A stretch of DNA of 64,000 nt from Ruditapes philippinarum (Eukaryota). The notes under the pieces are model-generated. The model did no database searches. It had not been told where the DNA came from and worked only from the letters and a program-made list of their open reading frames with translations. The position numbers and the translations under genes were made by a program. Of the stretch, positions 13,301 through 58,517 are shown in pieces. Within the stretch, counting starts at the first letter, position 1. Each line of letters starts with the position of its first letter. The stretch spans positions 1-64,000 of the forward strand of contig NW_026855732.1 in the NCBI RefSeq assembly GCF_026571515.1. The letters run 5' to 3'.

Positions 13301-16300
13301 CAATATTCATGTCTGTTAAATAACATAGGCATCTTATGTTACAACTCATTCGAGAATCAACAATAAGATTATGGAAGCAATATTATTTTACTATTGATAA
13401 ATTATTGTTTTATACAAATATATCATTAGACATAGCTTATTCCCTTCAAAGTGACTTTATAATATTGCCTATCCAAGTAAAATGTTCAGTACAGGTGAAA
13501 GTCAAAGGAACTTTTCATTTTTAGCATAATTGTCTTCAATTTTATAATCTGCTTAAAAAAAAAAACAAAGTCAACAACTGACTGAATCCATAGGAATTTC
13601 TATATAATTATATCTTTTGTAATAAAATGGTAACGTTCACTTGATAAAAAGGCATTTAAAATTATTAATAATTAGTCAATCACCATAATAATATTCAATC
13701 TTTTGGAATATATTGCCAATTCAGCTCAACTTGACAATGGAAAAATGAGCATAATGAGCAGGACCAGGTATACTTGCTCAAATTTACAAAAACTTTTCTA
13801 CATTTTTTATTGTTTTGTGTCTCCTTTAAAAGTTGATGCCACTCTTAAAAGATTGTTTGTTTTCCATGTCTGACCATTACTTTTAGGGTTAAATTGGTAG
13901 GGTTGATAAAGCAATATAATTCATGCTAGTTATGGGACATGACCTAAAATTATGATCTTAAGTAAATATATAAGTTCTGCATTTCATAAAATAAATATAC
14001 AGGCAAAGCATTAAGTTACCCAACTGTTATGCCAATGCCAACCCTGCGGCAGGTAGGAAAGCATCATTATTTTTCGAGTATTAAAGCTAAACACTTGCAA
14101 GCTTTATCACAGACCAATGAATCAATTAATCACAAACATAGCAAAGTGATCTTAAACTATTTAAGAATGATACATAAAATGGACATGAACTACTTACATC
14201 AGGTTGTTTTGTCATATCTCCGCCGTTAGCAATTAGGACTTCAGGGACACTATCATTGTCCCAGTCTGGTAATGCTGCAGCATGATAGGTGTTCCAGTAT
14301 GCTTCAAACATCTCATCATCTTCACAAGTCCACAGTGTCTCACCTTACATGGTATAAAGATAATATCAATGTTATTGGAAACTCGGCAAATGTGGTTTTT
14401 CCAAGCCAAACCCCCTGAACAAACAAACTTTTACTGTTATAGCTTCACAGTGCACTACCGGTCACAACAGATTGGTCAACCTGTTGGGCTTATTTTTGAA
14501 GCTGTAACTATAAAAGTTTGATTGTACCCCTGGATTAGTCAGGAAAAACCAAAAACATTTTTTTATTCCGTAGTAATTCTATTTATAGATCCCTACTTTG
14601 ACCTTTTATTTGAATAACAATAGATTTTACCACAAACATGAATATGTGCTATTTTGTTAACAGATATGTTGCGTTCTTATTGTATCCACTAATATGATAA
14701 AAACAATTAGATAGGTTAAGCCTCTATGCATAACAGATAGTATCATTCTAGCAAAGCTTGGTAGTAACCCTTTTTTTGGCATTCACCAAATCTCCTTTGA
14801 AGGTACAAATATCATTCAAAATCACCCACTAAACTAATCATAGCTTGCATTTCTGGTATTAAAAATATACAAGGAAATCCTTTAATTAAATTTTTTTAAC
14901 ATAAAATTTATATTTTTTTTTTTCAAAACTTGGTTATCAATATTTTCAACACTTTTGCTAGACTAAGTTTACAAATATCTGCTTAACCTGCATTTGCCAA
15001 TTAATTTTGTATATCGTTTAAATCAGAACTTGGCATACTGAAATGGGATTGCTGCTGAAAATGTGAACAAAATAACAACTATCCCCGGTCACCCCTATTT
15101 GTATTTTTGTAAGTTTGCTTACATTTGATATTTTCCTTACGAAAATGAGCAAAGAACTACTACTGTTACTATTTGACAGTCTCTTTACAACAAGGGTTTC
15201 ACCAATTTTCAATCACCAGATTTTCAAAATTTGAGAATTCAGATTTAAAAAGTTGCATTATATGTACATTAAATTTTGGGACCATCGTCGGAACCAATGT
15301 TACACATTCCGTATATACTACATTTAATATGAAACTGGTATACAGTAAATAGCCTGGTTTACCAAGGATGATCTCGGACAATATGACCCAACTTTATGAT
15401 TTTCAACAAAATTCATTACAATCTTAGTTGAGGCCTTTCTTAAACTTGTCAGTATAGAAAATAATTACCTTTGTAAGGATCAAAAGCGGAAATCTGGCCA
15501 GTTCTGCCCGTCACAACACAGTCTTTCTTGCCGTCCTTGTTGATATCAAAATCTTCACAATTCATCGCAAACACCTCTGACCTTGTCTTCAAAGACCACA
15601 ACTGTGAACCATTTATACCACTTACAGCTATGATATTACCCATGCATGGATAGTCTTCTCCTTAAAATATAAAATAATAAAAGCATGTACATGTTTTCTA
15701 AAGACATTCTTTGTTTAACCCATACCATGCTAAATATCATAAATGGACTGGTCTATTTTTTAATTCAGACAAAACCATTCATCATTTTTAGGAAAAATAT
15801 ATAAAGAAGTACTGACAGAATAGTGAACATCACAGACCATGATCAGACAGCGTAGATGTAAATTCAGTCACAGCCAGTGGGCTAAGGGTGAAGAACTAAG
15901 AAATCATGCCACATTTTTTATTTATTAAATTCTAAAACTGTAATTTGTGCAAGATAAGCTAGGAATAGCAAACACTTTCATGGACATTATAGGAACTTTT
16001 TTTTAAACATCAAATTCTGTGAGTCAAGATCATTTTGTTGTCATAGACATTTGAAAATAAAGAAATATACCTGTAGTTTTTAAAACTTACATTTTAATGA
16101 ACTTTAAGGATGTTGATTCATTGCCATCAGAGGATACTTTATAAAAATTTCAACATAATTTACTTTTAATGTAAACAATTATAACTATGATATCTTACTT
16201 AACCAAATAATAAACAACATCCTATATGATTTTATTTGAAAGAATCATTTTCTACTTTACTTGTTACTTACCTCTAAGGTACAAATTATTATCTAAAAAA

Positions 16301-19300
16301 AATTCCCTATAAATCATAAATTAACAAAAATATTATGTAAGAATTTTCTCAATTTTCTTTAGACCCCAAAACTAGTCATAATTATTAACACCTGCGACTC
16401 AAACTAAACTATCAAAAAAGCTGATAAAAACTGATAGTAACTCTCATTATCCCTTACAATGTCAATTAATAAATAATTTTATTAACTACGGTGCTTCCTG
16501 TTCAAAGTACCTATTATAGATACTGTTACAAAGTGGCCGATGAACAAACAATTAACTTAAGCATTGCGTTTTAAAGAACAACTTTTTCTATTATTGAAAC
16601 AGTCTGTTACTTCGGCTACCTCTGGGCTTCTCCTCTAATGACCGTTCACTATATATAAGGCCTTAAATGTCAACTAAAATATCCACATTATTTAAAGTAT
16701 TTTAAAGATCTGTAATTGTATTACACATCAATTATAATACTTTATATTATTATTAATATCATTAATTCAAACTCACCTTTTGATTTACAAACTTTATGTA
16801 GAACATCGTATGTTTTAGCTTGTTCGCTTTGTTGGAATGGTTGACGTAGAGCAGCGGCACTTGCAAATATGATATCATCTATGCCATCATGATCAACGTC
16901 CAACAATCGCACACTTCCCTCGCCAGCTGATAAACATTAAACATTAATCACATGACATTTCTTTGTAATTAAGGTTATGTAAACATTATATTTTTCATTA
17001 TATTACACATCTAGAGCTATCACTTAAGGAAATTCATTTAAAGCACCACCTTAGATACTTACTCCCAAATATGCAAGGCATTGGTTGAGAAACATAGGTT
17101 TATAAACGAAAGTGTAAAATCTATCTTAGCACCAGTGACCTTCAAGCATAATATTAATATTATAATATTAACAATAATAATAACTTTATTTTGAGAAGGT
17201 GACATATTAAGAGTACATAATAAACATACAACTTATTTCCAATATGGCCTTCTGTCTTTAAAATATTTACATATATATATAAACAGAAAACAGAAACAAC
17301 AATAAACGGCAATATACACATATTTATGACACACACTCTTACAAAAATACATAGCATTTTCACAGAAAGAATTAACTTAGAAAACTAGTACTAAAGGATT
17401 TTTTAGTACTTTTAAACTGTATTTTTCATTAAATAATACTTTTATGTTGCACTCAAGCAAATTGTCCTCACATATGCTCAAGCTATATAAAAGGTTTGTT
17501 TACAATATCTTATTCATCGTTCTAAAATATGTAACAGTTTGTATAGAGGGGTATAATTATATGATCCTATACAATAATTAACCCAAGTATTTCCATCCCA
17601 AATAAAAAGGAAGCCTTCAGTGTTCATTAAAATATATGTATTGCTGTAAGAACTTTATATATAATAATACCTAAAATCTAAAAACATACATAAAACTGGG
17701 CACTCACCCATTTCTTTATAGGTAACAGTCCATCCTCCATCTTCCCCAATTGTAATCTGTTTGTCAATAGTCTCTTGTTGTGAAGTCTGGGGATTTATGA
17801 CTTGAACTTCTGATTCTCTTCCAAAGTTTGAAAACAAAACACCAACAACAACCAGTGAAATCAAAACAACAGCAATAGTTACAGAAACAAGAACAATACG
17901 GCATCTCGATTCTTCACGTTCAACACGTTTTATTCTCGTTTCTGGACATAGATTTAGTTCTATTTCTCCCGATTTCTGGAAAAGGACTTTTTCGTCATCC
18001 GACAGAGAAAATTCATCACTATCACTCCCGCTTTGTTTTATTTCACGGTATCGTCCCCCTCGTTTTTTGCCTGTAAAAGGGAAAAAGTTAAACTGTTGTA
18101 TGTTTTGTTTTAGTGACAAGTATATTATCGAGAATATTATATCTCAAATGAGATGTCCAGGTAAAAATATACTACTGTATGATTTTAACTAGAAAGAGAC
18201 AACAAGAGAACGTCTTAATATTCCAAGATGATGTTACATGTAGCATGCTGTAAAGGCAGAGCTAATCAACAACTCAAGTCTGTTTCAAGATTTATCAATA
18301 TAGCTTCGAAATATAATACTGGAACATGTTTCCTGTTCTGTTTTCCAAAATGAAAAAGAAGCTTAAATTAAAACGGTTAAGCTACATGGCCAGTGAGTAC
18401 TTTTTTTAGGAAAATGTAAGGGAACACTAAAGATGTTTTTTATGAAATAAAAATAACAGGATTTTTTTGAAAATGGGCCTTTAACTAAGAATGCTGGGTG
18501 TGATACAAAGCTTGACTTTCACAGTTAGATTTTAATAAGTCTAAATATAAATGGCTGTTAGTTTAAACAATATTTTATTTATAATCCACACATTTACATA
18601 ATAAAGTACATAAATAAAATTAAATATTAAAGTACATAAAATAAAATGGCTGTTATATCTAATGAAATCATTTGAAGTAACAATGGGCAATTTTATAATA
18701 ATGTAAATAAATGATGTACATTTTATTAGGCCCACAGTGTAGACAGCCTTTGTTGCAACTGTGTTGCCTCTTTAAATAAAGACTTAATTATTATAATCAT
18801 TTCGTCCATTCAGAAATAAGGTTTAAAACTATTAATGATGAAGCTGAGCCAAACAATACTCTTGCTCTTCATTAAAATTTAAAAAAAAAATATTTAAAGA
18901 ATATATTTATTACATATCAAAGGTCTGTGGACAAGAATAGGCATGTCTTTTTTCTGTTTTCAATAAATATTCTAAGGTAAAGAAATATCATCCAGTAATT
19001 ATAAACCTGCTAGCACTATAATTTTAATACTCTATAAGTCTTTCACCCAATAGTGAATAACTTTATAGGAGATAGGTCTTTATTATGAATATGTTATCAT
19101 AAGTCTTGTACAAATATAAACAAAGGATCTAAAACGCCACACACTTATATCCACTCAAAACTCAATCGTTATCTATTTTAAATTGTGTATATAGATAAAA
19201 TATTGTGTGTTGTTGAATTTTCTTCAGTGAAGAACAAATTTAATGCACATCATTTTTGATCTTTTGACAACATAGATTTGAAGATGTCATTATAAATTGT

Positions 19301-23334: not shown

Positions 23335-25016
23335 TTATTATCATTTGCGTATCTTTCTGCATTAAGCGCTTTTAAAAGGTTATCCATGTCAGAAATTCAT
23401 TTTCTTTTTGCTTTTAGGCCTTTGGATCCTTTAAGCTCGGGTTTGAAGGAAGTATAATTTCTAGAATAAAATTCCGCAGCTTTAAATACATAATTTATTC
23501 TTTTATTCAAATTAGACAATTCAGTTAGTATTTCATAAATTTCAATAAATTTCTGTGATAAAAATATTTTACTCTGGGATGAGCATAGTATATCTTTAAG
23601 AGTGTAGCAGTAATTGCAAAGAATATCCATGCGTGGTCACACACGAACATTACCAATGATGATTTATTATTTTATTTTCATTCATTCGGTGTTCTAATGG
23701 TATTTATGTACAAATCTCAAGCTTTTTAGACTTATCATTTCAACATGAAACATATTCTGATAAGAATTCCACTAGATAAATCGTTTGTTTATTAAGTTGC
23801 CGCAGTATATATTTTGCACTTCTGCCAGCAATTTTCCCGGGCTATAGAACGAAGCTCTAAAATCAATACAGGCTGACGTCTTACAATACAGCATATTGTA
23901 TAATATGTCATGCATTATCGATACATATTTGTGATACTTCCTGTGCAATGAAAGTATTGGATATATCTAATTACAATTGTATTTTGTGTCTGTATATATC
24001 TAAAAGTATATGCAAAGCATAATAAAGGCATTTTGCTTGTATAGTGATCAATAAAGCAAAGTTTGGTGAGAAAAGAGAGCAAAACCGGGACAATATAAGC
24101 AGGTTTTTCGTTTTATTTGTTTACAAAATATGTACATTTTGAATAGTATTGATATTAAAATTTGTATGTGATAATTATAAGATAATTATTGGAATAATTA
24201 TGACTAGTCACTTCATTATTTGCGTAGTACTCGTGTATAGAATTTATATATGTTCACGTATCGATTTCTTTAAAAGCAGATGTGTAATAATCGTACAATT
24301 GAATTGATAATAATGAGATAATTTATTACATATATTACTTCTTTATTAAATACAATTAAGTTATTTACTCCTTTTATAAATGAATTATTCACCACTTATC
24401 GATTTTCAATTAATCATTCGGAAACGAATGAATAGAGATATGAAACTAAAATGACGTGTCTGTGGCGTGATTATATTAATAGAAGTCTCATATATTTCTC
24501 TTTCTTGAAATATCTACTTCGCAGAGGAGAAGCGTATAACACTGTAATGGAACTCTCAAGTCAGTTAGATAGGTAAATAGGTAGGAAGGTATAGTTGGGT
24601 ATTTATGTAGGGTAGAGTAGGTCGGTCGGTCGGTAGGTTCTTATGTTGAGTAGGGTAGGTATGTAAAGGTTCTGATCGTAGGGTGGTGAAAAGGTAGGGT
24701 TAGGGTAGGGACCGCTTTCAAAGACTGGATAAATATATATTAATTACTTTTTCAGGATACTCAGTTCTTCTAACTTTTAGTTTGTTCTTTTACTTACTAG
24801 TTAAAATATGAATGGTACAATATTTGTCTCATATATTATGTTAGCAGAACTGAAATGTTTGCGTTATTAATGTTGGTTAATATATAATTACTATTAAATA
24901 AATTCGTTTTTTTTGTTATAGATTTCAAAAATCCTAATATATGTTAATTACTTTTGAAACACTATTCCATTTTACTTTTGTAGGAAAGATTGTTAAGAAT
25001 CGTCGAAGACAAAAGT

Positions 25017-28000
25017 ATGTCTGGATACCATGCTAAGTTGGACGACAAAAGATTTACTAACTGGATAAAGACATGTATTGCCATCGATATATTTAGAGCA
25101 TATGTAGAGACTTTTGTTTACAAGGAAATAGAAAAGTTTCATTCAAGTATCCTTGAAACAATAGCAAATGAAAATAAAACGAAAAGTAATATTTATTGCT
25201 CCGAATGCAGAACTGCCAATGTATTGGATTGCAAAACGAATAACTTTTGCACCTTTAAGCATGGGAAATGTAGTAACCACTTTCCACCAGAACATACATC
25301 TCGTTCTTGCCCGAAAAACATCTGTAACCGTATCAAATATTTTATTCTAAAATGTCACGATTTTAATAGTCCTACATGGCAAAACACCAGTGCAGAGAAA
25401 TGGTGTTATAGTGCATGGGAGTTAGCAAAGTGTTATATGCCTAAAGGTGGGTATTTTGAAAAACAAAGTCCCGCCGAAACCGATTTAAATGGAATCATAA
25501 GCGTTATGTTGAACAACTCTAATATTTCAGGGACTATCGACAAATCAAATTGCGAAGAGGTAATTATCTTTTCTTTTTTCCTTTGAAGACTTTGCTAATT
25601 TCATTGAAAACATCACATCCAAAACTACATATATTACATGAAGGTTTGACACACACTACATTACAATATAGAAAACATGGGACTGACTTATTAATGACGC
25701 TAACTTTGCTTATTTGATACATTGAAAGCGTTGTCCTGTTAAATTATACCCGGCATCTAACAGCTGTTTATTCATAAGGAATATATTTAATTCTTAAGGT
25801 GACAACGGAGTCAATTATCACTGAAAATACCTTAAATGAGATTTTTTGCTTAGTAGATTTATCAACCTTTGCTGAACACATTCGTGATTTAATTTTGGAA
25901 GCAGTTAGTCCAAAAAATGTTTTTTAACGTTTTAAAACGGTACCTGTACCATTTTTATCCGCTATTCGCGTAACCTGTCAATTATCGATAACGCTCCGCC
26001 CCCTGTTGAGGCATCAATGAGGGAAATCGGTAGTTCCATATATGCGTGAATTACCGGTCCATACTGGTCCATACTACTCGTATTTGTTTAAATTCATGTA
26101 TCGTTACAAATACCGTACATCTTTTATGAATATCGTCTTTTATTTAGCCTTTTTTATAAAATAAGAAATTGTCGGCCAATGTACGTAACATAATGTATGA
26201 AACATGAATAATTAAGCATAGCGGCAAATCGCACGACCACGGGGTTGATTTAAAATATAGTTGCTAAAATATCCATAATGTGTGAAAATAATTTGTCTGT
26301 CCCGTTAATCTGATTGATATTACATTGAGTTTATGGACTTTTGTACGGATTCAAGGGCTTGCTTTACATTAATTTCAACCTCGTTTTTTAACACTGTCAA
26401 GTAAAACAGCAACAAAAACAGACAACATTTTTTATGTGAACGCCTATATGACTTGTGGTAAGGTGTCCCTGACAAATTTCTAAACCATTTTAGGTTGTCT
26501 AAGGATGATTATTTCTCCATGAATCAATAAAAAAAGATAATAAAATATATTATCAGTGAATGCTTTGAATAAATTGTTCCCCAGTAAATTGAACACAGTA
26601 CTAATAAACCTGGGACAAAGTATGGATTTTATTGTATATCCCAGTAGAAACTGGATATCTATGCCGTGCATAGATGATACGTGTATTCATGATAATAGAA
26701 GTCAAGAAGGTCAGATCATAATGATCGAGTGATACCTTTTATTTCTATTAAAATATGTGAAGCATTCATATCAATTTGGAGGAAAAAATATATAATATCC
26801 CGTTCTAATTTGAACATCTACCATGGACTTTAAAAGACCGTCAGAAGCTCAGGTTTTTGTTAATTTAATTTATATTTTAAAGGAATTTCATACACGAATA
26901 CACAGACAGAGTGACACTGGTATAATATAATAATAATGCTGATGATAATAATAATAAACTTCAAAAGTGAAACAATTAAATACCCCGCTAGCGGTGCGAA
27001 AATACGTTCCATTTCCCCCCACCGAGTGCCTCAAATTTTACCGAAAGTCACGTGACATGTGCGACAGATACCAGACGGACAATAAATCACATTAAGATTT
27101 GAAGAAATTTCTGTTATAAACTGATATTAATCAGCAAGTTTTTAATTGGTCAGATGTCACTTGGTCATAAAATGTTGTTAGAGTATGTTACCGCAACTTG
27201 TGACCCTCTCTGGTGCGATATTTGTGTATTATGCAATTATTTAGCGTGAAACGTAGGGGTCCGAGAGAGAGCAGCCGATTTATGACACTTCGTTTGATGC
27301 AGGTCGGACTAACTTTGAATCGGCATAACTTTTTTAATAATCAAGCAATTAACATGCGGTTTAAAGCACATGAAAGGGAATTCATTTACGGAGGGAACCG
27401 TGTCAGGGATTTTTGTTTGCTCAATCAGCGACTTAATTATCTTTAATTACGTAATATGTATGGTGAAAAAAGTCGCATAAAATGTTTGACGTTACGTAAT
27501 ATTTTTTTTGAGAAAAGATAGAAAAAATTTGAGACACGGTTCCCCAGATAATATAAATAAGGTTATTTTCCCAAAGTTTGATGACAAAAAAATAAAAAAT
27601 GACTTTGATATGACGATTTAAAATTTTAGGATTTTTATTCAAAATCAATCATTTACAAAGGCATTTTTTTCAAATATGTTATTTTTTGTGATGATCAACG
27701 ACATTTAATGCACAAAGATTAAATAAATAACAATTGTTACTAAAATAAGTTGGTTTAAATGACATTTATGTGAGTACCACGGAAAGTGTCTGTTGTCACC
27801 TTAACGAAACTTACAGATAAACTTTAATACCACTGCATGCGTTATGTTGGATTCTTTGGGACTAAAAAGTCTCCTTGACAACTGGTTGTTTGCTTTCTAT
27901 AAGAAGTACAATAGTACCAAGCGTTGTGATTAAAATATGGCGTTTCTAATAATTCAGAAAATTGCTATAGTATCGTTGGCCCGTAAAAATATTCTCCATA

Positions 28001-31000
28001 AAAGGCCGTTTTGTCATGCCTATACTTGTATATAGCGATTTTGAATTATGGCTATAAAACCTGTGCAATCTCAATCATTTTACACATTCTTTGTACAGTT
28101 TGTTAATTGTGATACTAATTGTGAATGTAGAATAATTAAATAAGCTATGCTTCCAGTGTATTGTTACATAAAAATCAAAATATCTGTTAAGTACAGTCCT
28201 CATCACATGATGCTTAGATTGGCCATTCAGATGTCAAAACCTTCCTGGCTTCCGTTGTTTCAACTTAGACAATATACATTACATATATATGTTGTACTTA
28301 TAGACATGTTGACCACTACAAGTATGGAGAGAAAGAAAAAGACAGAAGTTTATACAGTTGAAATACTTTATTATTTAAAATATCAGTCAACTGCAATAGA
28401 TGATTTATCAATATATATAAAGTGTTTGTTTTCCAGTTGATTATGTTATAATACTATATATATTATAAATATAAAGAATAAAAACATGTCATAATTTCAG
28501 ATACGTGGATATTGTAACTCACTTCGGCATACATCAAATTTTTATGTGGTTGACCAAAAGTTAGCTATGTTCCTCGACATGCTCGTTTCGTTTTTGGAAA
28601 ATTCACCAGCATTTCACAACGACAAGAAAGCTAAAGAAGCTATCAAAGAAATCAAGGAGGTAAGTCAAAATTTAATAAAGTTAGACACGTGAAGGTAAGG
28701 AGCGGTAGCCCGACGGGGAACATAGCAAACTCAAGGTTACAAAGCAATGTGAATTAAACTCTGAGATATATACAGTCATGATTCCCGTTGGGCGCCAAAT
28801 GTCACAGGGTGAGAAAAATTGTGCAGCCTTCATGACCTGGACTCAAACCCGGGGCCCTCGGAATACCGTTTCGCGGTTCTACCGACTGAGCTATCCAACC
28901 GTTACACACCTTCTCCGCTAAATATAAAATAGTTAACCGTGTTGCTTGCATTAGTGACAAAAGAGCTAATTATTACGACTGTCTTTATCTTGCAAGGTTA
29001 GAGCAGAGGAGTTTAAAATAACTGTTCCTGATGTCACACGAGTGATACAAAAATCAATCCAAGAAGAACGGATCCAGTGTTCTAAAGATATAGCTAAAGA
29101 ATCAAAAGATTACATAGAGGAATTGCAGAAACTAAGAAGTGAGATTGAAACCATTGCAACTAAAAGTATCAACGAAATCATTTCTGAAAAACACAAAGCC
29201 ATCGAAAAGATAACAAGTACAGCATCTTTACAAGTATCAGCTGGAAAAGACGAAATTGTAAAAGCTACAAAAGATGCACGTACTGAGATAGAATCTTTTG
29301 TGAAAGGAACTAATACACAACTAAGAGAACGTATGTTACTTTTCCATTCTGAACTACATTTAAAATAAACTATTTCATTCCGTACTATTGTTATATTATA
29401 CATTATTTGCGAATAAATTCGGTGTAGGAAATTTAAATATTAAGCTTTATAAACAAAAGTATTTTTGACATCTTGTATGCTTCGTAATTTAAGTTTATGT
29501 GTTTTTCTTTTGTCAATTCTCTAATTTTTTCTTTTCAGGGCTTAGAAAAGACCTTCTTGATTGGAACAAATCTAAACATAACGAAATCCCAATCACTCCG
29601 TTATTCGACGATACCGAAGTGCCAATCACAGACTTTTATGTCCGTCCGCAACTAGTTTCTGTTGAAAGACAAAGTTACGGATCGGTTTGGAAAAGAAATG
29701 AGAATACCCACCAATTCATTACGCGACGTTTTTTATAAACACGAAATAAGACATAATGAAATTTATCTTACATCAGATGCAGGATTTGGAAAATCTTCTT
29801 TAAGCAAATATTTAGTAATGGCATGGTGGTACGCTTTGACACCAGATTCTGACCCGTCGAGTCAGTATTTTTCCGAAGAAGATAAGAAGGTTATGGAAGT
29901 GTTTGACTATGCATTTCTGATCAACCTGCGTGAACTAGCTTATGAATGTGATGTTGACAAAATAATATTTAAACATATCATTTGCGATTTATCTCATTCT
30001 TCAGAATATTCTCTCTCATTTCTTCAAAATATTCTCCATGATGAAAACTGCTTGATAATTCTTGATGGTTTAGATGAATGGTCACATCCCACGGGTACAG
30101 AATGCAATAAAATGTGTGACGATATACCCCACAGGAAAGCAAGACAAGCATGTACAGTCGTGACCACTTCTAGGCCCTGGAAGCTTAGCGCAATAAAAGT
30201 CAGAACAAGTCAGATAGACAAACATGTTGAACTATGTGCACTTACCAAAGATCAAATAATCTGTCTCAAGAAAATGTCTGTAACAAAACTTATAGGTAGG
30301 AACGGTGAAATAAGCAACATAATCGAGGCATTAAATGCTGAAATTAAAGAAAGAGAACTAGAAAATCTTGAATCAAACCCAATGCTACTTATGTACTTAG
30401 TTTGTTTAAAAACTGAAGGGAAACCACTTGGAAAATCAAAATCTGAGCTTTACACACAGATCATTGAGCTTCTGCTGGTGCGTGCTATACAAAAAACAGA
30501 AAGAAATTCGAGCAATGATATGAATATTGAAAATTTGACAAAGGGTGATCTAGATCAAGAAAATATTCCCCTTTGTTTAAGAGAACACGAGTTACCTCTA
30601 CGATACTATCACCTTTTAAAGCAGCTTGGGCATTTGGCATTTACGACATTATTTGACGATTGCAAATCAAATACACTGGTATTTGATAAAAAGAAAGCCA
30701 GTGGTTGCTTGTCTAAAGATTTCTTACACGCGAGCCTTTTTTCCGGCATGTTGACGGAAAGTAAAATTATGGGTTCCTTATTGATAAAACAAAGTAATGT
30801 ATCATTTTGCCATAAGACCATTCAAGAGTATTTTGCTGCCATTTACATGCACATGACGCGAGATGAAGATTTTACTGTAAAAACAACGCTGAAATTTTGT
30901 AATTCGGTTAATCGCTTACTTGAAATGGAGAAAGTGTTTATCTTCTTGTGTGGCTGTAGCTATGAAACTTTTGAACGTTTCTTAAATGAGTTGTGGACAG

Positions 31001-32241
31001 TAGTGGAAACTGATAAAAGTGCTATAGAATACAGACACGGTTGTATAAGCAGTACTTCTAACTACAATATGAAAATAAAACCAATGAAAGATCTTCAATC
31101 AATGTATATCAGCTGTCTAAAAGAAATGGAAATGCAAAACGATGGGAGTAAAAGTCAAAACATTGGAAAATTAAAACTATATCTACATGACATATTTATT
31201 GACGAAGATTGCAAAGACAATAAATACATGTTATACTTGAAGAGTATGAAGGAAATGAATGAAGGTAAAATGAAATCATTTAGTATTAGAATTGAAGGCT
31301 TTTCAAATTTTGGTGATATTGAGGAGAAATTTCAACTCGAAAAGGAAACCTCTCTGGAAAAAATTAACTTTAGGGGAGAATGTTGCAGTAATGATATTCA
31401 AAAGTTGCTATGTAGTTCGGCAAATAGTTTAAAATGTGTAGAGATATTGTCAAGTATATGGACTGACAATAGATTTGTACCAACATACACCATATGGACT
31501 GATGCAATAACCAATACCTTTCAAAGGATGCATAACCTAGAAGCGCTGCATCTTTATGCTTTCCAAATGTCTCACACGCAGCTGAAGGAAATGATTTCTT
31601 TCATAGAACAGCATATTATAATGAAAGATATTGCAATTTTGAACCTAAAATGCGCCGATCACGACTTGTGTAGCGGCTGTCAACTGGATCTATCTGGACA
31701 TAGGAAATTGCGGCTATTGTCTATAGACAACTTACCGTTGTCCAAGCTTTCAATCAATGTGTCTGAACTAGAAGATTGTGTTCTTGGAAAGATTTCAAAT
31801 TCAAGCGTCCTGACATCATTCCTTACGGCATTGAAATCTGCAATTAGGGTGCAAGGCTTAACTTGCAGACATATAAGTTCCACGGATGAAATTGATAAAA
31901 TGATTGAAACAATAAGTTCTATGCCAAACCTCAGTTTTATACGATTGTTATATTCTGATCTCGGTGAAAGACAAGTCTTTTTGTCAAACAAAATGTCCTC
32001 TCTTCAGCTGGTACGCTTTGTTGAAGTTATTGTGAAATGTTGTGTACTGTGTGACATTGTAATGGTTATCAAATCATTTCCTAAGCCCGTTACCATTGAG
32101 TTATCAAAGTGTACTGTATATACTGAGACTGAATTTGATGCGTTTAAAACAGAAATTAAAAAAGATAGTAAGATTTTATTTGTACATGAAGGCAGTGGAT
32201 GTGAGTTAACATTTAAGACCTACGGAAATCAAAAGTTGTGA
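25017..32241 (+). CDS. NLR-like protein: CXorf38/DUF4559 HEPN-like domain, coiled coil, NACHT, LRR-like region; one frameshift (possible pseudogene or assembly error)
   Basis: Exons 25017-25559, 28501-28659, 28997-29330, 29539-32241 (GT-AG, phases 0/0/1). N-terminus NWIKTCIA..CPKNIC..H..PTWQNT..WELAKCYMP.GGY..TDLNGII..NSLRH; Walker A TSDAGFGKS, Walker B LIILDGLDE, VTTSRP, winged-helix FCHKTIQEYFAA, Leu-rich C-terminus. Exon total is 3739 nt, one nt off frame; the shift must lie in 29656-29735. Confidence 0.8.
25798..27800. mobile_element. Kolobok-like non-autonomous DNA transposon (~2.0 kb) in an NLR intron
   Basis: TTAA-GGTGACAACGGA ... TCTGTTGTCACC-TTAA: TIRs beginning GG with TTAA duplication; no long ORF. 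Confidence 0.7.
28786..28919 (-). mobile_element. tRNA-derived short LTR (28906-28800) with upstream purine tract and downstream tRNA-Lys PBS
   Basis: Minus strand: AGCGGAGAAGGTG | TGTAACGGTTGGA TAGCTCAGTCGG (A box) ... GGTTTGAGTCC (B box) ... CCCTGTGACA | TT TGGCGCCCAACG, matching the first 12 nt of the tRNA-Lys1,2 PBS. Confidence 0.7.
29662..32241 (+). CDS. NACHT-LRR portion of the NLR-like gene (terminal exon)
   Basis: Uninterrupted 859-aa ORF with NACHT P-loop, Walker B, WHD motif and degenerate LxxLxL repeats. Confidence 0.9.
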   Translation: MKDKVTDRFGKEMRIPTNSLRDVFYKHEIRHNEIYLTSDAGFGKSSLSKYLVMAWWYALTPDSDPSSQYFSEEDKKVMEVFDYAFLINLRELAYECDVDKIIFKHIICDLSHSSEYSLSFLQNILHDENCLIILDGLDEWSHPTGTECNKMCDDIPHRKARQACTVVTTSRPWKLSAIKVRTSQIDKHVELCALTKDQIICLKKMSVTKLIGRNGEISNIIEALNAEIKERELENLESNPMLLMYLVCLKTEGKPLGKSKSELYTQIIELLLVRAIQKTERNSSNDMNIENLTKGDLDQENIPLCLREHELPLRYYHLLKQLGHLAFTTLFDDCKSNTLVFDKKKASGCLSKDFLHASLFSGMLTESKIMGSLLIKQSNVSFCHKTIQEYFAAIYMHMTRDEDFTVKTTLKFCNSVNRLLEMEKVFIFLCGCSYETFERFLNELWTVVETDKSAIEYRHGCISSTSNYNMKIKPMKDLQSMYISCLKEMEMQNDGSKSQNIGKLKLYLHDIFIDEDCKDNKYMLYLKSMKEMNEGKMKSFSIRIEGFSNFGDIEEKFQLEKETSLEKINFRGECCSNDIQKLLCSSANSLKCVEILSSIWTDNRFVPTYTIWTDAITNTFQRMHNLEALHLYAFQMSHTQLKEMISFIEQHIIMKDIAILNLKCADHDLCSGCQLDLSGHRKLRLLSIDNLPLSKLSINVSELEDCVLGKISNSSVLTSFLTALKSAIRVQGLTCRHISSTDEIDKMIETISSMPNLSFIRLLYSDLGERQVFLSNKMSSLQLVRFVEVIVKCCVLCDIVMVIKSFPKPVTIELSKCTVYTETEFDAFKTEIKKDSKILFVHEGSGCELTFKTYGNQKL

Positions 32242-33821: not shown

Positions 33822-36616
33822 TTATGCGCAATTTCTTAAATAATATGTAAAGTTACTTCCAGATTCATTGAAATCACCAGGTAAAGTGCGGGGTGTGCTT
33901 GTCTGCATTGAACACCAACCACCTGTGTCATATGTTGGGCTGTGATTGCATCCACGGCATGTGTCCGTATTAGTACACCACGTGATACAGTCACGCGCTG
34001 TTTTCTGGTTGGATACGTCTATACTTTCGCCTTGAAAGTAATGTCCTGGATGGGCTATATAGGTTGACCCGTACACAGTACAGTCTACAACATAAGAGGC
34101 AAATGTGCTATCAGAAAATAAGAACCAAATAACTTTGATACAAAACTCATCCATCCTGTTAAATGCTTTATTCGCATTCAAAAATTTAGAAATGTTTTGC
34201 AGGGCCTCATTTCAGTTAAGATAATTTCTGATTCCATTTGTTAATGATTAAATACGATAAAAATGAAAGTGATCAAAAGTAAATTTGGTTGATTAGTTAT
34301 AATTTGATAACGAAGTCTTCAAATAATGTATTTTCGTTAAGAGAATTTCATATGTTTGTTTGTTTGAATGCGGTTTACGTCACACCGACACAGTAACGTC
34401 ATATATAGCAACGTACTAGCTTTCCTGGTGAAGGAAGACCTCATGTGCCCTTCCTTACAATATTTGAGGCACGAACGGGCACCTGACTAGAATCGCCGAC
34501 GTTCCGTAAGCTATCTGGATAGCTTCATCACATAAAAGAATCCAAAGTCCCTGTCGCGAATCCAACCCACAGCTATGAGGGGCAAGTGGTTTGAAGTAAA
34601 CGACCTTAACCACTCGGTCACGATCATTTTATGTTTAGATAGATTGTATAATTTTGAGATAAAGTTTAAACCTTCAGGGCACGTCTTATAGAAATAAAGA
34701 TATATATTATTAATATTTAACTATATAAATTTTACAATTAACTATTTAACAAAACTCTGCTTGGTATAAAAACTGCTCACTTGGTGTGCAAAATCCTGTA
34801 ACTGGATCAAAACTGTATTCAGGGAGACAATTGCAGAAGCCGTCGATACAATAAGTGAACTCCTCGATGCAATTGGCGTTTGATTGACATTCATCACCTT
34901 TCCTGAGATAGTCAGGCAAGTTCTCTGTCATCGATATAGACACTGATGAGGGAATAAATAAATGTGTAAAATATTTGTTAGATCCGATTTATTCAGGAAA
35001 TACAATACTGTCTGTGTTTTTTTGTAATTTTGTTGAGCACTCGCTCAAGTTGTTTAAAGAGATATTCAGGCAAAATAATGACAAAAATATTAAAATGGTC
35101 TTATGTACTCAAATCACGCTAAAATGACATTTCTTGAAGTTTCAGCATGAATTTCTGTTTAAATTCTAAATATTTTGGGTTTGAAGCGTAAATATATCTA
35201 AAGATATATGTTGAACAAAATTTAGACCCGAATAGAATCACCAAATAGTTTTAAAACAAGTCACATGACTTGAACAAACCCTTGAAGTTACAATAACAGA
35301 TATTATGGATATTGTATGATTGAAACAAGTCTAAGTCATTCATTTGACATGTTCTTTAACGTTTCCAGAGTTCACTTGACAACTATTGTGAAACCCTAAC
35401 GCTCTAACCTGACCCACGCGGGTCAAGTTAGGAAACCACCATTTTATTCTTTATATGGAGAAAAGTTTTGTTCCTTTGACTGTCTAATATATTCATGTTG
35501 AGGGCATTTACAGAATAATTACTGAAAAACTCAAAACTAAGAAATGAAAATTTTGCCTGTGTCTCCCTTTAAATGTTAACTCTACAAAGAATCCAAATGA
35601 AAACTTGCATGTTTCATGTCATATAGGAACGTTATTTATGTCTTAATATCATACAAATTCTGTTACAAATCTGTAAAGAATGACCATAATATTACGGAAA
35701 CAAAACATTTTACCGTAATAAATTTGAAATCATTAAGTTATTATACTCTTTATAGTAAGTTAAATTGAAACTTTATGACTTTATGTCATAATTCAAATTG
35801 TCGCTCTTTCGTTTTCGTTGCTTTTCACGGTCTGTCGTTTCTCCTTTGGTTGAACAGTTTTTGTTATCAAACTTTGTATCATATATTAAAACGTTTGCTA
35901 CGATTATTTTCTATATGAAAGCGAATTTGAAGTTTTTAGTTAATCTTTTGATTATATCAAAATCTATTCTTAGAAAATAAAGACGTCTGGCTCTGCCAGA
36001 CATAAACAATCAAAGTTTTGTGTTTGTGTTAACTCTACTGATTATGACACAAATATTAACAAAGAGGAACATGTACCGTGTTAATAGTAAAACATAAACA
36101 AATATTTTTGTAAAGAGGATTAAGGAAATGATGTAAAAATTTGCACCAAAGTTATTGATTAAGACCTTCATCAAATGGTACATAAATCTCGAGGAAAGAA
36201 AATAAAGAAAAGCAACAAAAAAAAATAAATAAATAAAAATCCACAGAAAAAACAACAGAAAACAACAACAACAGTAAAAAAAAAATCATTTGAGTCCTTT
36301 TTAGGTATAAATAAATTGCTTCATTATAAAGTTTTTCTTTTGAAAGTTTTAACACAAGTCTGTTTTGTTGTGATTAATGATTCCGAGGGATCACTTTGTT
36401 TCCAGATTTTTATCAAAAGTACAAGTCTGGGAATGTGTCTGCTTTACGAATATACTTTTACATGTATTATATTTTTCACATAAGTCTTAAAATGTCAGCG
36501 TTCACTATATAGCAATAATAAATTTTTACATACGCTTTCAAGTGTCAGCTTAGTATATAAATATAGCAATAATTATTTTTCACATAAGTCTTAAAGTGTC
36601 AGCTTACAGTATACAA

Positions 36617-36697
<81 letters not shown>

Positions 36698-37149
36698 CAA
36701 TACATAACTGTTTTACAGATTCAAGACCGGTTTAGTGGTTTGCTATTCGAAAAGGAATGTGAAAAAACAAACAAATAACAAATAAAAAACAACAGAAACA
36801 AACAAACTGAAACCAATTCATTAATATCATTAAACATACCTTGTGATTCCAGGCTCATAAAACTGTATGTGTTACTGTCATTTACAGTAATCAAGACAGA
36901 GCAACCAATACAAACATTATCTTCAGGACTGTACAAAATACCCAGACAGCTCACATTTGAGGTACACTTGCTTGCACAAATGGCAACGCTGGCAACACCA
37001 TCAGTTTCAAACACATGTTGGCTCGGGATATTTCGGTAGCAGCCAAGGTTCTCCAACGCATGGAATGTTGTCAATATAACACCAGCAAAAACAATTGGAA
37101 ATTTGAAAAACGAAATCACCAGAAAACAAGATTTAGTCATTTTCAACAT
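33822..37149 (-). CDS. Secreted Cys-rich PAN/Apple - EB/EGF-like - PAN/Apple protein, 3 exons, 244 aa
   Basis: Exons 37149-36840, 34942-34781, 34084-33822 (GT-AG, phases 1/1, 735 nt). Hydrophobic N-terminus; CASKC....C...Y......C; C.....C.....C..G.C.C...Y; C...C.....C.G.........C..........Y..C. Confidence 0.75.
34353..34622 (-). mobile_element. tRNA-derived SINE (bivalve Meta/Deu-type core, tentative)
   Basis: Minus strand: head CGTGACCGAGTGGTTAAGG (A box), degenerate B box GGGTTGGATTCG, core GAAGCTATCCAGATAGCTTACGGAACGTCGG, (CAAA)n tail. Confidence 0.75.
35058..35568. mobile_element. TTAA-flanked (Kolobok-like) MITE
   Basis: TTAA-AGAGATATTCAGGCAAAA ... TTTTGCCTGTGTCTCCCT-TTAA imperfect TIRs. 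Confidence 0.6.
36619..36694 (+). repeat. (AAT)n microsatellite
   Basis: About 24 AAT units with one AGT interruption. Confidence 0.97.
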
Positions 37150-38277
37150 TATTTCTCAGTACTAAAACAAACTGAAATATGATTATTTTTGAGCTGGACT
37201 GATTGCTGTGACTGATACAAAAATTATAAACTTGTATTTTTGAATTTTTTAAATATACGTATACGAGTACGTATGTAATAATTGTTTACCTAAACTGACG
37301 TATTATTTATTTATAATTACTGTAATTGTATGTTCGTGGTTATTTGTAAACATTTAATTTCTAAGATATTAATTGGATTATTCCTTTTTTTGCATCAATG
37401 CAAACACGATATTAACAGACAGGGACAGACATTGTCATTTTATAATTAAACATTCCATCTCACACTTTTTAACAAAAGTATCATTAAAATTATTACCATT
37501 GAGTAATTAGCTTAAATGTGACAATTAATTCAATACAAATAATTAAGAAACATATGTTTTTTAAACCTTTTTCCCAAGATATTTCTATTTGATCAATTTA
37601 AATAGAATTCACGTAATCTTACATTTAATTCTTCGAAAATGTCTGTATATAATAATTGAACTGACCGTGTGGTATGCATTGAATCCTTATCTTCTGTAAT
37701 TCTAATTATCAGATAATTGGATTACAACAATCATTTAACCACAACCTATTTGTTACCAAACGAGCGCATGTTAATGTTTATGGTTATCAAATAAAGGTCG
37801 GAGTAAGGATCTAGGCGCACCGTCAATAATATTATTATTAATATTATATTAAAAATATTAACAACCGTTAAAATCCTTATACAGTGGTGGAAAATTTAAA
37901 GTGACTTTAAAGATTTAACCGCATGACACATATTGTAAAAATTTTTTTCTCTTTTTTTTCCTGAAATGAATTTATATAATTATAACTAGTCGAAGAAACT
38001 TTAAGATATTCGAGAGAAAAAAAAAACAACAACACAACTTTTTACGTGAGTATATTTAAAGAATCGACCACTTAATTAGCATAATAAAAATAAAACAACA
38101 CGAACTTATAAGGTCTCGATGGTTAAAAATAGGTTCACGTTGTTCCCAGCGGCGACAGGAAGACGATCGTAATAAAATGACATCGTTGTTTTGCCTGTTT
38201 GTTTCATTAACCGTTTGATAAAATTACCACACGAATGTTATGAGTATTCCTTTATTACACGAACGCTGCTTATCCCG

Positions 38278-38350: not shown

Positions 38351-39242
38351 AAACCAGCCACCCGATATCAACGTTTTAAATAAGCTTATAGATAATCTAC
38401 TTAAGACAAAACAGTAATTTCGAAAATTACACAATATCGACGCTTTAGAATAGCATATGCCTCGTTTGAGATTGGTCCACTGGAACTTTAAAATTAATTT
38501 ATGTTTTGCTGTATATTATTCATCTGAAGTTTACCCCAATGAGATCAAAGATACGAAGGTAGCGGATTATCTGACACTTTGCACGTAGAGAGAGACCTAC
38601 ATCAAATTGTACGAAATTTTTGAAAATCCCATTTCTTTTCCTACCAAGACAAAAAAAACTAAAACAAACAAAAAAAAAAGGAAAAAAAAAAACAAACAAA
38701 AAAAGCGACATCGTTTCAAACATCGACTAAGATCGACTTCTTTAAATATGTGAAATAACAATTTGCATTTGGCCATGCGTAGGCTGATGTATAATCTTTA
38801 TATATCTGATATCGTGTTTTCATTAACAGCATAATCTGGCAATAAGTCCAGCAGCTGTGTATAATCCGATAGTTTCTAATGGCAATAAATGTATACTTAT
38901 CAGATTTAATGATATTTTCTCCAATGGTGACAAATAAAACTTAATGTGTTTGTTGATTAAGTCAGTCAGATAACTGGAACTAAAACATCAATATGTTTTC
39001 GTAGCAACATTTTCTTTGATAACAGTATTGAAACTTACAAATTGTAAACTGAGTTAATGATTACAATTTAGTTTAATTTGTATTTAAATGCAATTAAATG
39101 GATTGAATGTGTATCGATTCAATAATGCTACGCCTGGGGGATGATTTGTATACATATAACCTGATACAGATAAATAACTAAACATTTAATGTGATGAGAT
39201 GAGTATAATTTATAGGTTTTGTCATTTCCAAATATATTCAAA

Positions 39243-40304
39243 ATGGTATCAACAGCAAAACTAGCATCGCTTGGGATTTTATTCATCATATCTTGCTTAA
39301 GTGGACTGGTACTACCTTTTATCATTCTTCGAGGACTTGCACGGAATTGTCAAAGCTCGAAATCCTTTAAAACAGTGTTAGGAGTATTAAACTGCTTTTC
39401 TGGTGGAGTTTTCATATCGACATCATTGTTGACTCTGCTTCCAGAGGGTAGAGAAACTGTTGAAAAGGCATATAATGTGATGGGACATAACCTTATGTAT
39501 CCCGTTACAGAGCTTTTGTTGGGATTTGGATTTCTGATAATCCTACTCATTGAAAGTGTGACGATTTCGTGTTACAAGAAACATAAGAAAATACCTAAAG
39601 GTTCCGAACCCCGTCCGGATATAGAACGAGTGAGTGAAAGTCAAACCAGAACTGATACAACTGACACCACACATGAATGTAATGATTATTGTGCTTCTTA
39701 CCAGAATGGTCATGTAACAGTCATTCCTAGGGTTCAAGGAGCAGACGAACAACAGGACATAACCCCAACATCGCCGAGAACAGAAATTAAAAATGACTCA
39801 CAACTCCCAGACCACTGTCTCTCTGAAGATATCTATGGCGAAGGAATGTCAAACTTACACAGCATTGTTCTTCTGATGGCTTTGTCAATTCATATGATAT
39901 TTGATGGTCTTAGTTTAGGATTATTGCCAGACGAGAACGAGGTCTGGTCTCTCCTTATGGCACTTGGAATTCACAAGATACTTATATTTTTCAGTACTGG
40001 TATAACAATATGTGAAAGTACAACGACAATAAAATTTATCATCGCTATGCTATATATGTCACTCGTGTCGCCTTTAGGCGTTGGACTGGGAATTTTATTA
40101 ACATCACAGTCGGCCAATGTTTCGTTAACAATTATTTCTGCCTTTTTACAAGCAGTAGCTGTTGGAACGTTTGTTTATGTTGCATTCTTTGAAATTTTGC
40201 TTAAGGAATTTACAGCTGGTGAAAACATGAGAATTGCAAAAGCAATATCTACCGTCTTTGGCTATTGTATATTTGCAGGAATAAAGTTCATTATGCCGGA
40301 ATAG
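39243..40304 (+). CDS. ZIP (SLC39) zinc/metal transporter, ZIP1/ZIP3-like subfamily II, 353 aa, intronless CDS
   Basis: Eight hydrophobic segments in a 3+5 arrangement; LNCFSGGVF, YPVTE, ALSIHMIFDGLSLG, GIHK, SPLGVGLG, AVGTFVYVAFFEIL motifs; ATG at 39243 lies just downstream of a candidate splice acceptor (TTTATAG, ~39215). Confidence 0.93.
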   Translation: MVSTAKLASLGILFIISCLSGLVLPFIILRGLARNCQSSKSFKTVLGVLNCFSGGVFISTSLLTLLPEGRETVEKAYNVMGHNLMYPVTELLLGFGFLIILLIESVTISCYKKHKKIPKGSEPRPDIERVSESQTRTDTTDTTHECNDYCASYQNGHVTVIPRVQGADEQQDITPTSPRTEIKNDSQLPDHCLSEDIYGEGMSNLHSIVLLMALSIHMIFDGLSLGLLPDENEVWSLLMALGIHKILIFFSTGITICESTTTIKFIIAMLYMSLVSPLGVGLGILLTSQSANVSLTIISAFLQAVAVGTFVYVAFFEILLKEFTAGENMRIAKAISTVFGYCIFAGIKFIMPE

Positions 40305-56700: not shown

Positions 56701-57545
56701 TATCTATATCTGATACATCTAATGAATACTGTAGTTTTGTTTCCGGTAATAATATTTTTCACTTCATTTATGTATTTTTCATCTCTTAAGAGGGAATTAT
56801 TAAATTTCCAGTAAGACCGCCCCTTTTTTAAATTTACCAAATTCTAGTGACATTAAAATAAGTGAATGATTCTGTAACGATACCCAGGTAAAATTAAAGT
56901 TTTGTCAATATCGGTATATAAAGTATCTGAAATTAGGGAAAAAGTCAAGGCGTGCTTTTTTCTTTGGATTTTGTCTAAACCACGTATATTCCCTTTTTTC
57001 CAAGTTATTTTCTCTCCAGCAATCCATTAGGTTAAACTCTGACATTAAACTGTGTAGCTTATCACGTGCATTTGGATTGTTTAAGTGTAAGTAATTAAAA
57101 CAATCTATATCTGGATTAAGTACCATGTTTAAATCTCCAGCAAGAATATATAAAGTATTATTGAATTGTGACATTTTCTCTGAAACCATCTCATAAAAAT
57201 TTGGGTTGTCTCTATTTGGTCCATAAATATTTAATAGAGTGATATCTTTATCGCATATTTTACAGTTCAGAATAAGCAAATTACCTTCATTATCCTTCTC
57301 GATATTATTTACTTTACAATCAAAATTATTGCAACACCCCGAGATTGACTATTGAAATAAGAAAAGTAGGTATCATATCCCCATATGGACCGTATATACT
57401 TTTCTTCCTTATTTGTGAAATGAGTGTCTTGTAACATACATATTGAGTACTTTTTACTTTTTAAGAAATTAATAACATCTCTACGTTTAGCTCTGTCGCC
57501 TAGGCATTGAACATTCATAGAAATCACTGACACATTATTTGTCAT
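53760..57545 (-). pseudogene. LINE ORF2 (APE endonuclease - reverse transcriptase - zf-RVT), multiply frameshifted
   Basis: Fragments: ISMNVQCL..LQDTH..SRGVAI, NIYGPN, AGDLN, ARLDFF (APE); SPGNDG, KNWRPISLLN, DFAAAFD, QYADDT (RT); GGLKMVD; CTFCQSQPETLIHLFNDC (Zn finger). 3' end approximate. Confidence 0.9.
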
Positions 57546-58517
57546 GGCTATCTAAATCATGAAAAAATTGTCTAAAAACATGTGAAAAAGAAAATATAAT
57601 TGTCTGATATTTTATGAGAACAGGTAAAACTTCTTGATAGATATATAGAGTATTTAAATAAAAACCTTTAAAAATGTAGGGTCTCACCCAAAAACTTAAT
57701 GGGTCATCCACCAAAAACCTTATATTATCCATTAGTTTGTAATTTTTATATGAATCGATCGGCATGTTGAAGAAGAGGGCTTTAAATTAAATTTAAGCTG
57801 TAATATATTCTCCATTTCACTAGGGGGCAGTAAATGTGCCTATTCATATATAAAAGGATTGTGCTTTTACAAAAAAAAAGAGTGAAAAAGTTTATAAATA
57901 TAATGTAGGAAACATATATATACTGTATGTGTTATACCATTTCCAGGTATTTTCAATAAGTTTATATAACAACAATACAAATACCAGTACATAGAGTATA
58001 ACTTTACATTCCAAAAAGAAAATAAACAGTAAAAAGTAAACAACATACTCATTGATTTACTGTGTTTTGACCATTTTCCCTGTGCCTCTGCCCATTCACA
58101 TTAGATTCATATCTTACACAGTTCACGTTTCACTGAAAAAAATAAGAACCAGACCACAAAGAACCGCTTTCAAAACGTAATCATACTACTTTTTTTTCTA
58201 TTATCTGGGATTAAAATAACTTAGTTTTAATGTATCCCAGTAATTATAAATATATACATGTACCGAAACGGCGAAAGGACGAACTGACTCATCAAAACAA
58301 ATATACGAAAGAACATCAAATCTACTTTTAAACTTTATAAAGAAAACATTTCTACGTGTGTTTTTCAATTAAGAGGTTTGCATTTTACTTAAGTTTTCAT
58401 ACCGTAATATCTCCCAGCTTTGGTGTTGTGAACAACAGTTTATAATTCTTGACAGGTAAAATTTGGCATGGGTGCAGCCATTTTATCAGGTGGCGCTGTT
58501 TGCGCACTGCGCATCAG

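Follow-up and report, generated by a model that had tools for sequence, protein, structure and literature searches.

A HEPN-family head with a remodelled motif on a NACHT-LRR gene of Ruditapes philippinarum

Introduction

Whether an immune receptor can lose the arginine of its RNA-cutting motif and still act as an enzyme is the question raised by a plus-strand gene at positions 25017-32241 of a 64,000-nucleotide stretch of Ruditapes philippinarum DNA (contig NW_026855732.1 of assembly GCF_026571515.1, positions 1 to 64,000; this whole stretch is called the window below). An earlier sequence-only reading had described the product as a nucleotide-binding leucine-rich repeat receptor (NLR) with a head of the HEPN family, and proposed that this copy may be a catalytically altered or decoy paralogue, in which a cysteine occupies the slot of the canonical arginine. 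The motif was indeed found to read IRGYCNSLRH, with Cys in that slot; however, the loss of Arg was not specific to this copy, being shared by most of its paralogues and placed by a tree as a single change at the base of a large clam branch. It was by following this cysteine that the branch was found.

The architecture itself was already known. HEPN-headed NACHT layouts appeared in print in 2013, 2021 and 2022 (PMC3710099, PMC8662601, PMC9646362), with more than 50 HEPN-NACHT genes and a typical motif kept in 194 of 202 HEPN proteins of the pearl oyster (PMC9646362), and HEPN-NLRs were reported from nine invertebrate taxa with a proposed immune role and untested function (PMC8662601). The CXorf38 family, to which the present head belongs, was classified as a Swt1-like HEPN with an inserted Zn ribbon, for which fusions to NACHT were described from cephalochordates and cnidarians (PMC3710099). 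The statement of the sequence-only reading that similar, functionally uncharacterised architectures occur in bivalves and corals thus agrees with the literature, in which the layout is known from bivalves and cnidarians. What appears to be new is a branch of clam sequences, large and old, in which the HEPN motif has been rebuilt in a consistent manner; no description of it was found in the titles, abstract openings and passages covered by a literature search, outside of which stood subscription journals and the supplementary alignments of PMC3710099 and PMC9646362.

The Motif Substitution Is a Trait of a Clam Subfamily

The residues in question lie in two short segments of the head:

28501-28530, plus strand: motif IRGYCNSLRH, with Arg183, Cys186 (canonical Arg position), Asn187, Arg190 (clade-specific) and His191.
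25482-25490, plus strand: Asp156-Leu-Asn158, in which Asp is kept in both clades and Asn158 is RH-specific.

The codon of Cys186 was unchanged in six of seven sequencing runs and unresolved in the seventh. When exon 1 was compared with its own genome, 151 matches were recorded among 150 scored of 452 candidates; because only 150 of the 452 were scored, the family is larger than the sample, which leans toward the query. Up to 10 kilobases (kb) were fetched around 120 of the 149 listed paralogues, the 29 omitted coming from the upper part of the list, among the closer matches, and the motif was readable in 106. A sequence was called RH type when Arg stood just before the motif His and no Arg stood five residues before it, and canonical when it read R-N-x-x-x-H. 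By these definitions, 86 of the 106 paralogues were RH, 16 were canonical, four were neither (one of these being, by eye, a misaligned R-D-x-x-x-H) and none carried both arginines. The same picture was given by the database proteins, 131 of which had a readable motif among 173 with the domain: 102 RH, 22 canonical, seven neither and none with both. Among the proteins with a named source, those of RH type belong to Ruditapes, Mercenaria, Mya and Dreissena, and those of canonical type to Mercenaria, Mya and Mactra.

In a tree of 126 heads built after removal of the motif columns (a quick search, rooted at the midpoint, with no outgroup), one branch separated RH from canonical sequences with a Shimodaira-Hasegawa-like approximate likelihood ratio (SH-aLRT) support of 100 and required one change. 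The NACHT tree of 37 own-genome rows gave the same split at 90/88. On these trees, the RH type is read as a subfamily of clams, large and old, whose sister clade is canonical, and the loss of the canonical Arg as the ancestral state of the whole RH branch; the canonical state would be the older of the two, a polarity that rests on the RNEIMH motif of human CXorf38. A Fisher test of Arg exclusion (p 1e-15) was discarded, since the tree shows one event.

Within the RH branch, the canonical Arg position is held by Gly in 77 of 101 proteins, by Cys in four and by Arg in none. The sister of the present gene in both the head and the NACHT trees, a Mercenaria protein of 1,241 amino acids (aa) and its probable orthologue on this evidence, reads VREYGNDIRH, with Gly at that position. 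Because the branch is mostly Gly and the orthologue is Gly, Cys186 most likely derives from Gly and not from Arg. The decay of an Arg codon at a CpG (CGT to TGT) was considered as the source of the cysteine and rejected, as relatives carry Gly.

These observations bear directly on the proposal that loss of the catalytic Arg is peculiar to this copy, acting as a decoy beside paralogues that are active; this is now very unlikely. Cys does occupy the canonical position, where it is rare (4/101), and the copy sits on a longer branch than its orthologue (0.6 vs 0.25). However, all 16 proteins of the smallest well-supported group that contains this copy lack the Arg, as do the orthologue and 86 of 106 paralogues, and this copy even keeps the motif Asn that 83 of 97 branch members have lost. 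The paralogue survey has therefore largely refuted a copy-specific decoy.

A NACHT exon lay inside the fetched stretch at no fewer than 29 of 84 RH loci with the His and at least 10 of 16 canonical loci, and NACHT was present in 70 of the 102 RH database proteins. Separately, close RH copies with the reading G-R/K-x-V-R-H-S were seen to form a large burst of recent date (L034-L105); many of them have no NACHT within 10 kb, and these may be stand-alone heads or may have long introns.

Residues Lost and Gained in the RH Branch

The RH motif has the appearance of remodelling rather than decay when its columns are compared. Among the 101 proteins of the branch, the motif His was kept in 97, Arg at the preceding position (His-1) in 97, and Asp156 in 97% (96/97 RH and 22/22 canonical in the comparison of the two clades), where the conservation of the median column is 46%. 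The gained Arg is encoded by all six Arg codons among the own-genome copies. At the second motif position, Arg or Lys was found in 82 of 97 RH members and Asn in 14, so that the motif Asn has been lost from 83, although the present copy retains it as Asn187. An Asn two residues after Asp156 was found in 94 of 97 RH members vs none of 22 canonical ones and, given this distribution, the gained residue types are the lost types, Arg and Asn. The strongly conserved set comprises Asp156, Asn158, Arg183, Arg190 and His191, and positions 186 and 190 lie one turn apart on the helix 176-190 of the predicted model.

Measured against the usual description of a HEPN RNase, the head departs at the first motif position, where Arg is replaced by Cys186 here and is absent from all 101 branch members, and conforms at the sixth and second positions, with His191 and the polar Asn187. 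The change extends to the Cys/His-rich insert, in which Cys72 (92/97) and His88 (88/89) are RH-specific (codons 72 and 88, window 25230-25280) and may complete a further zinc site; as these two residues were also gained, the domain was remodelled more widely. Since the swap is one event, the mutual exclusion of the two arginines counts as one observation and not as 100.

Gene Structure and the Truncated Annotation

The gene has four exons, and all three introns are spliced in RNA-derived contigs:

25017-25559, plus strand: exon 1 (aa 1-181), which encodes the opening portion of the CXorf38/DUF4559 HEPN-family head and whose donor the RNA joints confirm.
28501-28659, plus strand: exon 2, aa 182-234, HEPN motif helix and last head helices, RNA joints on both sides.
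28997-29330, plus strand: exon 3, aa 235-345, long amphipathic helix forming a predicted coiled-coil stalk, RNA joints.
29539-32241, plus strand: exon 4, which encodes the NACHT module and the LRR-like tail up to a TGA stop; RNA-like contigs of four runs cover it.
29684, plus strand: extra base, present only in this assembly, which shifts the frame to a stop at 29736-29738.

GT..AG joints were found in the RNA-like contigs of four runs from four studies, in three of the four for exons 1-2, in all four for exons 2-3 and in three for exons 3-4, whereas the last two joints appeared in none of three DNA runs over the stretch that covers them. As none of the runs is recorded as RNA, their RNA status rests on these spliced joints, which serve as the evidence of transcription, and their depth is uninformative on expression level. 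Exon 4 has no close duplicate elsewhere in the assembly, so that the RNA-like contigs can be assigned to this locus. The continuity from head to NACHT was pieced together from separate contigs, none of which spans the whole gene; nevertheless, the three joints, the lack of the extra base in 4/4 runs and an orthologue containing both domains establish the head and the NACHT-LRR part as one reading frame in one transcript. The splicing of exons 1-3 to the NACHT exon, on which the sequence-only reading depended, is thus borne out. The RNA-like contig of one run (X18) has a match that starts at the AG acceptor just before the ATG (24982-25016) and carries 76 further letters, which suggests a non-coding exon upstream of 25017. 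Introns 1 and 2 hold high-copy repeats (25584-28020 and 28700-28900), where summed depth reached hundreds to thousands in all runs.

The same reading overlooked that, as assembled, the gene does not read through. The spliced frame entering exon 4 ends at 29736-29738, before NACHT, whose frame is offset by one, and this stop is due to the single extra base at 29684. The base was left out at full depth in all four runs resolved there (three of them DNA and one RNA-like, drawn from four studies); the contigs of two further runs were one letter shorter across the site, and one run was unresolved. Without it, the frame comprises 1,245 codons with zero internal stops. The Mercenaria orthologue is 57% identical over exon 4, where the next complete homologues reach at most 38%. 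From the base missing in the runs, the open frame and the orthologue of nearly the same length, it follows that the gene is intact in the population, and the frame is intact in every other animal resolved. The extra base may be an assembly error or a null allele private to the animal that was sequenced. None of the 38 coding differences among those listed creates a stop, and 13 of them are synonymous vs approximately 20% expected, a hint of an excess of synonymous polymorphism among the differences listed.

The public protein P0001 of Ruditapes philippinarum, named 'CXorf38 homolog' and 411 aa long, is identical to exon 1 and ends at the frameshift. Because 4/4 runs lack base 29684, this annotation represents a cut-short form of a 1,245-aa NLR. 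The alternative that the gene is a frameshifted pseudogene, or that its product is only the 411-aa head and coiled coil, has in its favour the frameshift of the assembly and the end of the public protein, but it runs counter to the runs, the open frame, the 1,241-aa orthologue and the lack of stops among the listed differences; refuted by the reads at the population level, it is the least credible of the explanations considered. Other short DUF4559 proteins in the assembly may likewise be hidden NLRs, and several paralogues have broken exon-2 or NACHT frames (e.g., L059 and L071).

Head, Coiled Coil and NACHT-LRR Body

Exon 1 was assigned to DUF4559 in Pfam (E-value (E) 3e-15), and the head as a whole scored above the PF15112 cut-off (74 bits vs 27, E 2e-20). 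Its Cys/His-rich insert comprises C61, C64, C72, C78, C85, H88, C98, C103 and H114, which would be suited to zinc binding; C61, C64, C78, C85, C98 and C103 are conserved in both clades, and in the model the insert is a loop region (53-101) between helices. The helices encoded by exon 2 span 176-190, 199-215 and 223-237. The predicted head resembles chordate CXorf38 models, with a template modelling (TM) score of 0.75 over aa 1-240 and 0.85 over aa 108-240.

The HEPN fold is given to this head by the published classification, by weak profile matches and by predicted models, with which the tests made here agree, albeit weakly. The best non-family Atlas row was a bacterial HEPN_Swt1 region, at a TM of 0.48 across 134 residues, which is below the score required for naming a fold. 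The HEPN_Swt1 profile matched weakly (E 0.002-0.04) in five of eight canonical-branch proteins and in none of 12 RH proteins. HHalign aligned the heads with DZIP3-type heads in the motif register at E 0.085 (RH) and 0.0023 (canonical), vs 0.75 and 0.48 for reversed controls, placing Cys186, Asn187 and His191 on the R, N and H of the DZIP3-type motif; with a template master lacking the motif His, the value was 0.21, which is not significant. A Foldseek search of the PDB with the 411-aa model yielded no match at E<=0.001 and is uninformative on the head fold, as the head was not separately folded. A wide PDB fold search with the same model was filled by coiled coils and returned nothing for the head, and when the sequence of a canonical relative was compared with those of solved structures, two rows at chance level resulted. 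The homodimer prediction for aa 1-242 scored 0.34 vs 0.28 for its control. The view that a HEPN-family head replaces the death fold is therefore retained on the published classification and these weak fold tests.

Behind the head, residues 244-358 form a single helix in the model, with a predicted local distance difference test score (pLDDT) mostly above 85 to about residue 330 and of 69-75 thereafter, and coiled-coil structures were matched at Z of about 8 in the wide fold search. The body encoded by exon 4 is arranged as follows:

29773-30261, plus strand: NACHT NTPase core, with Walker A SDAGFGKS, Walker B LIILDGLDEW and sensor-1 TTSRPW, Pfam NACHT E 4e-8.
30805-31131, plus strand: winged-helix His motif FCHKTIQEY, by its position, and HD2-like region, NLRC4_HD2 E 5e-6 below cut-off.
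31189-32238, plus strand: LRR-like solenoid of about 13 strand-helix repeats, the predicted sensor, from model secondary structure.

Pfam assigned exon 4 to NACHT (PF05729) with 33.7 bits vs a cut-off of 26.7, and the G, G, K, D and E of the NACHT motifs were invariant in 71 of 71 aligned sequences. The His of the winged helix (His770) would be equivalent to NLRC4 His443, judging by the motif. The exon-4 model was predicted with a pLDDT of 89.7 and a predicted TM score (pTM) of 0.86; its best solved-structure matches in Foldseek were NLRC4 (E 1.8e-19), NLRP9 and NOD2 (to 3.5e-18), over alignments of about 900-1000 columns. The C-terminal LRR solenoid is seen in the predicted structure only (about 13 repeats, pLDDT near 90), no Pfam LRR family being matched in any exon. 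Pfam matched no CARD, PYD or DEATH family, either to the individual exons (E<=1) or to the 411-aa protein (E<=0.5), the N-terminus being occupied by DUF4559 and one long helix with no death fold. Pfam and the models thus agree with the domain order first proposed, namely a Cys/His-rich DUF4559 head, a coiled coil, NACHT and an LRR-like tail.

Mammalian NLRC4, NOD2 and the NLRPs share the order of NACHT, winged helix, HD2 and LRR, with Foldseek E-values from 1.8e-19 to 1.8e-14 among the matches listed, but they carry CARD or PYD adaptors, the identity is 10-15%, and TM-scores of only 0.24-0.42 indicate that the orientation of the domains differs or is uncertain. With the CXorf38 family (DUF4559, PF15112), the gene shares the Pfam family, the predicted structure, the Cys-rich insert and the NACHT fusion (PMC3710099); it differs in having no double-stranded-RNA-binding, CARD or DEATH domain. 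That family is listed there as 'Active' with R-x4-H, whereas the RH branch has no such Arg, mostly lacks the Asn, and has acquired an Arg at His-1 together with an Asn at Asp+2. In pearl oyster and other bivalves, HEPN-NACHT-LRR proteins of the DZIP3/hRUL138-like kind (PF18738; PMC9646362, PMC8662601) likewise place a HEPN-family head on NACHT-LRR and show a large lineage-specific expansion, and Mercenaria examples are 37-38% identical to this gene over exon 4, but their heads belong to another HEPN subfamily and lack the Cys-rich insert.

Near-identical NACHT modules were seen with different heads (RH, canonical CXorf38-type and DZIP3-type), in the Mercenaria gene models P0008/P0009/P0014, P0011/P0025 and P0035/P0048/P0054. 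Among 94 database rows, mainly Mercenaria models, 11 changes were required for three labels, and among the 37 own-genome rows none was found beyond the single change (90/88). This mixing in Mercenaria may be real swapping or chimeric annotation in tandem arrays and, because of the latter possibility, head swapping was not used as support.

Proposed Mechanism and Alternative Explanations

One protein that is both sensor and RNase, triggered by oligomerisation and with a rewired HEPN site, is the preferred reading, and it is regarded as evenly poised between right and wrong. In this mechanism, ligand binding would drive oligomerisation of NACHT, the coiled coil would pass this to the heads, and the heads would pair into the predicted RNA-cutting site. 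There, Arg190 and Asn158 would replace the Arg and Asn lost from R-N-x-x-x-H, while the pair His191-Asp156 would still perform catalysis, and the output would be destruction of RNA in infected cells, leading to cell death or translation arrest. Since the usual catalytic Arg was lost and another was gained nearby across the subfamily, the head likely still cuts RNA with a rebuilt site. The more specific claim of a venerid and myid clam NLR family with an active RNase head, in which the Arg has migrated by one helical turn to the His and the Asn has moved beside the catalytic Asp, is advanced more tentatively, as possible though short of probable.

In favour of this mechanism, the NACHT motifs are intact, and in bacterial NACHT proteins hyperactivation switches on the enzymatic heads (10.1101/2022.07.19.500537). 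Those anti-phage proteins, whose enzymatic heads include HEPN, show the same logic of effector, NACHT and sensor, and the winged-helix His would make a hyperactive allele available in this gene as in theirs; the likeness is one of functional analogy only, as the trees contain no bacterial sequences. A preprint model of human CXorf38 has a His167-Asp134 pair, a site that needs a dimer, and the motif RNEIMH (10.64898/2026.05.28.728550). Asp156 is likely the equivalent of Asp134, by spacing only (33 vs 35 residues to the His). In Las1, motif positions 1, 2, 5 and 6 face the catalytic centre (10.1101/760058), an orientation that, by analogy, would fit an Arg at position 5 reaching the site.

Several points weigh against an active site of this kind. 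The R1K and H2R changes of Las1 are not viable, and its position 5 is usually occupied by a small residue, located at the bottom of the site (10.1101/760058), while 82 of 97 RH members carry Arg or Lys at position 2. As read from the tree, the motif swap is a single event, so that the exclusion of one Arg by the other is one observation. The HEPN fold of this head has no match to a solved structure, and no CXorf38-family protein with demonstrated RNase activity was found in the literature search.

The strongest alternative is that the RH head does not cut, being a module for RNA binding or scaffolding in receptors that act as sensors and call in canonical HEPN-NLRs, the less numerous type, to serve as executioners, an explanation considered plausible but on balance doubtful. 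It would account for the branch-wide loss of the canonical Arg and of the motif Asn in 83 of 97 members, changes whose equivalents kill Las1 in the source cited above, and for the excess of RH over canonical copies (86 to 16, in a sample biased toward the query). The basic residues at His-8, His-4 and His-1 would form a positive surface for RNA or a partner, and inactive HEPNs have been proposed as RNA receptors (PMC3710099). However, His191 and Asp156, which a pure binding surface would not have to keep, show the same degree of conservation as the putative zinc ligands, and the loss of Asn from the motif has its counterpart in the gain of Asn158.

It is improbable, by comparison, that the head keeps its His and Asp for other chemistry or for metal binding, such as a nucleotide-processing or signalling reaction. 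The gains of Cys72 and His88 and the want of a solved-structure match to the HEPN fold would be in keeping with this, but no other enzyme family was matched in profile and fold searches, and the sister clade has the textbook R-N-x-x-x-H in the same register.

Other Features of the Window

Directly downstream of the gene, two PAN-domain exons and an EB-module exon lie on the minus strand (33822-37155) and likely belong to one or more secreted proteins. They are followed by a single-exon ZIP zinc transporter (39216-40304, plus strand, Pfam E 1e-50) and by remnants of a retroelement without long terminal repeats (non-LTR; 55637-59901, minus strand), which include a reverse transcriptase piece (Pfam E 1.5e-14) and, by eye, an endonuclease-like piece and a frame resembling open reading frame 1 (ORF1-like). 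Upstream, several exon-like frames at 4372-18143 (minus strand) contain one transmembrane stretch, one GDVDGDG loop and one acidic Asp/Asn repeat; the three pieces tested had no Pfam match. No tRNA gene was found in the window.

Implications for HEPN-Headed Receptors

HEPN-headed NLRs are the dominant NLR type without a death fold in some bivalves, and none with a tested function was found in the literature search. The locus illustrates how one base of an assembly can mask an NLR behind the name 'CXorf38 homolog'. It also leads to a family that consistently breaks the R-x4-6-H motif, the rule by which HEPN heads are called active, in four genera of farmed or invasive clams, and the canonical sister clade in the same genomes provides a built-in control. 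If the RH heads do not cut, clams likely divide the work between many sensors and few executioners. If they cut RNA, the catalytic rule of HEPN would widen to a migrated-site chemistry that escapes R-x4-6-H, and animal NLRs would include direct RNase executioners, acting by enzyme like the bacterial STAND proteins, multidomain ATPases of signal transduction.

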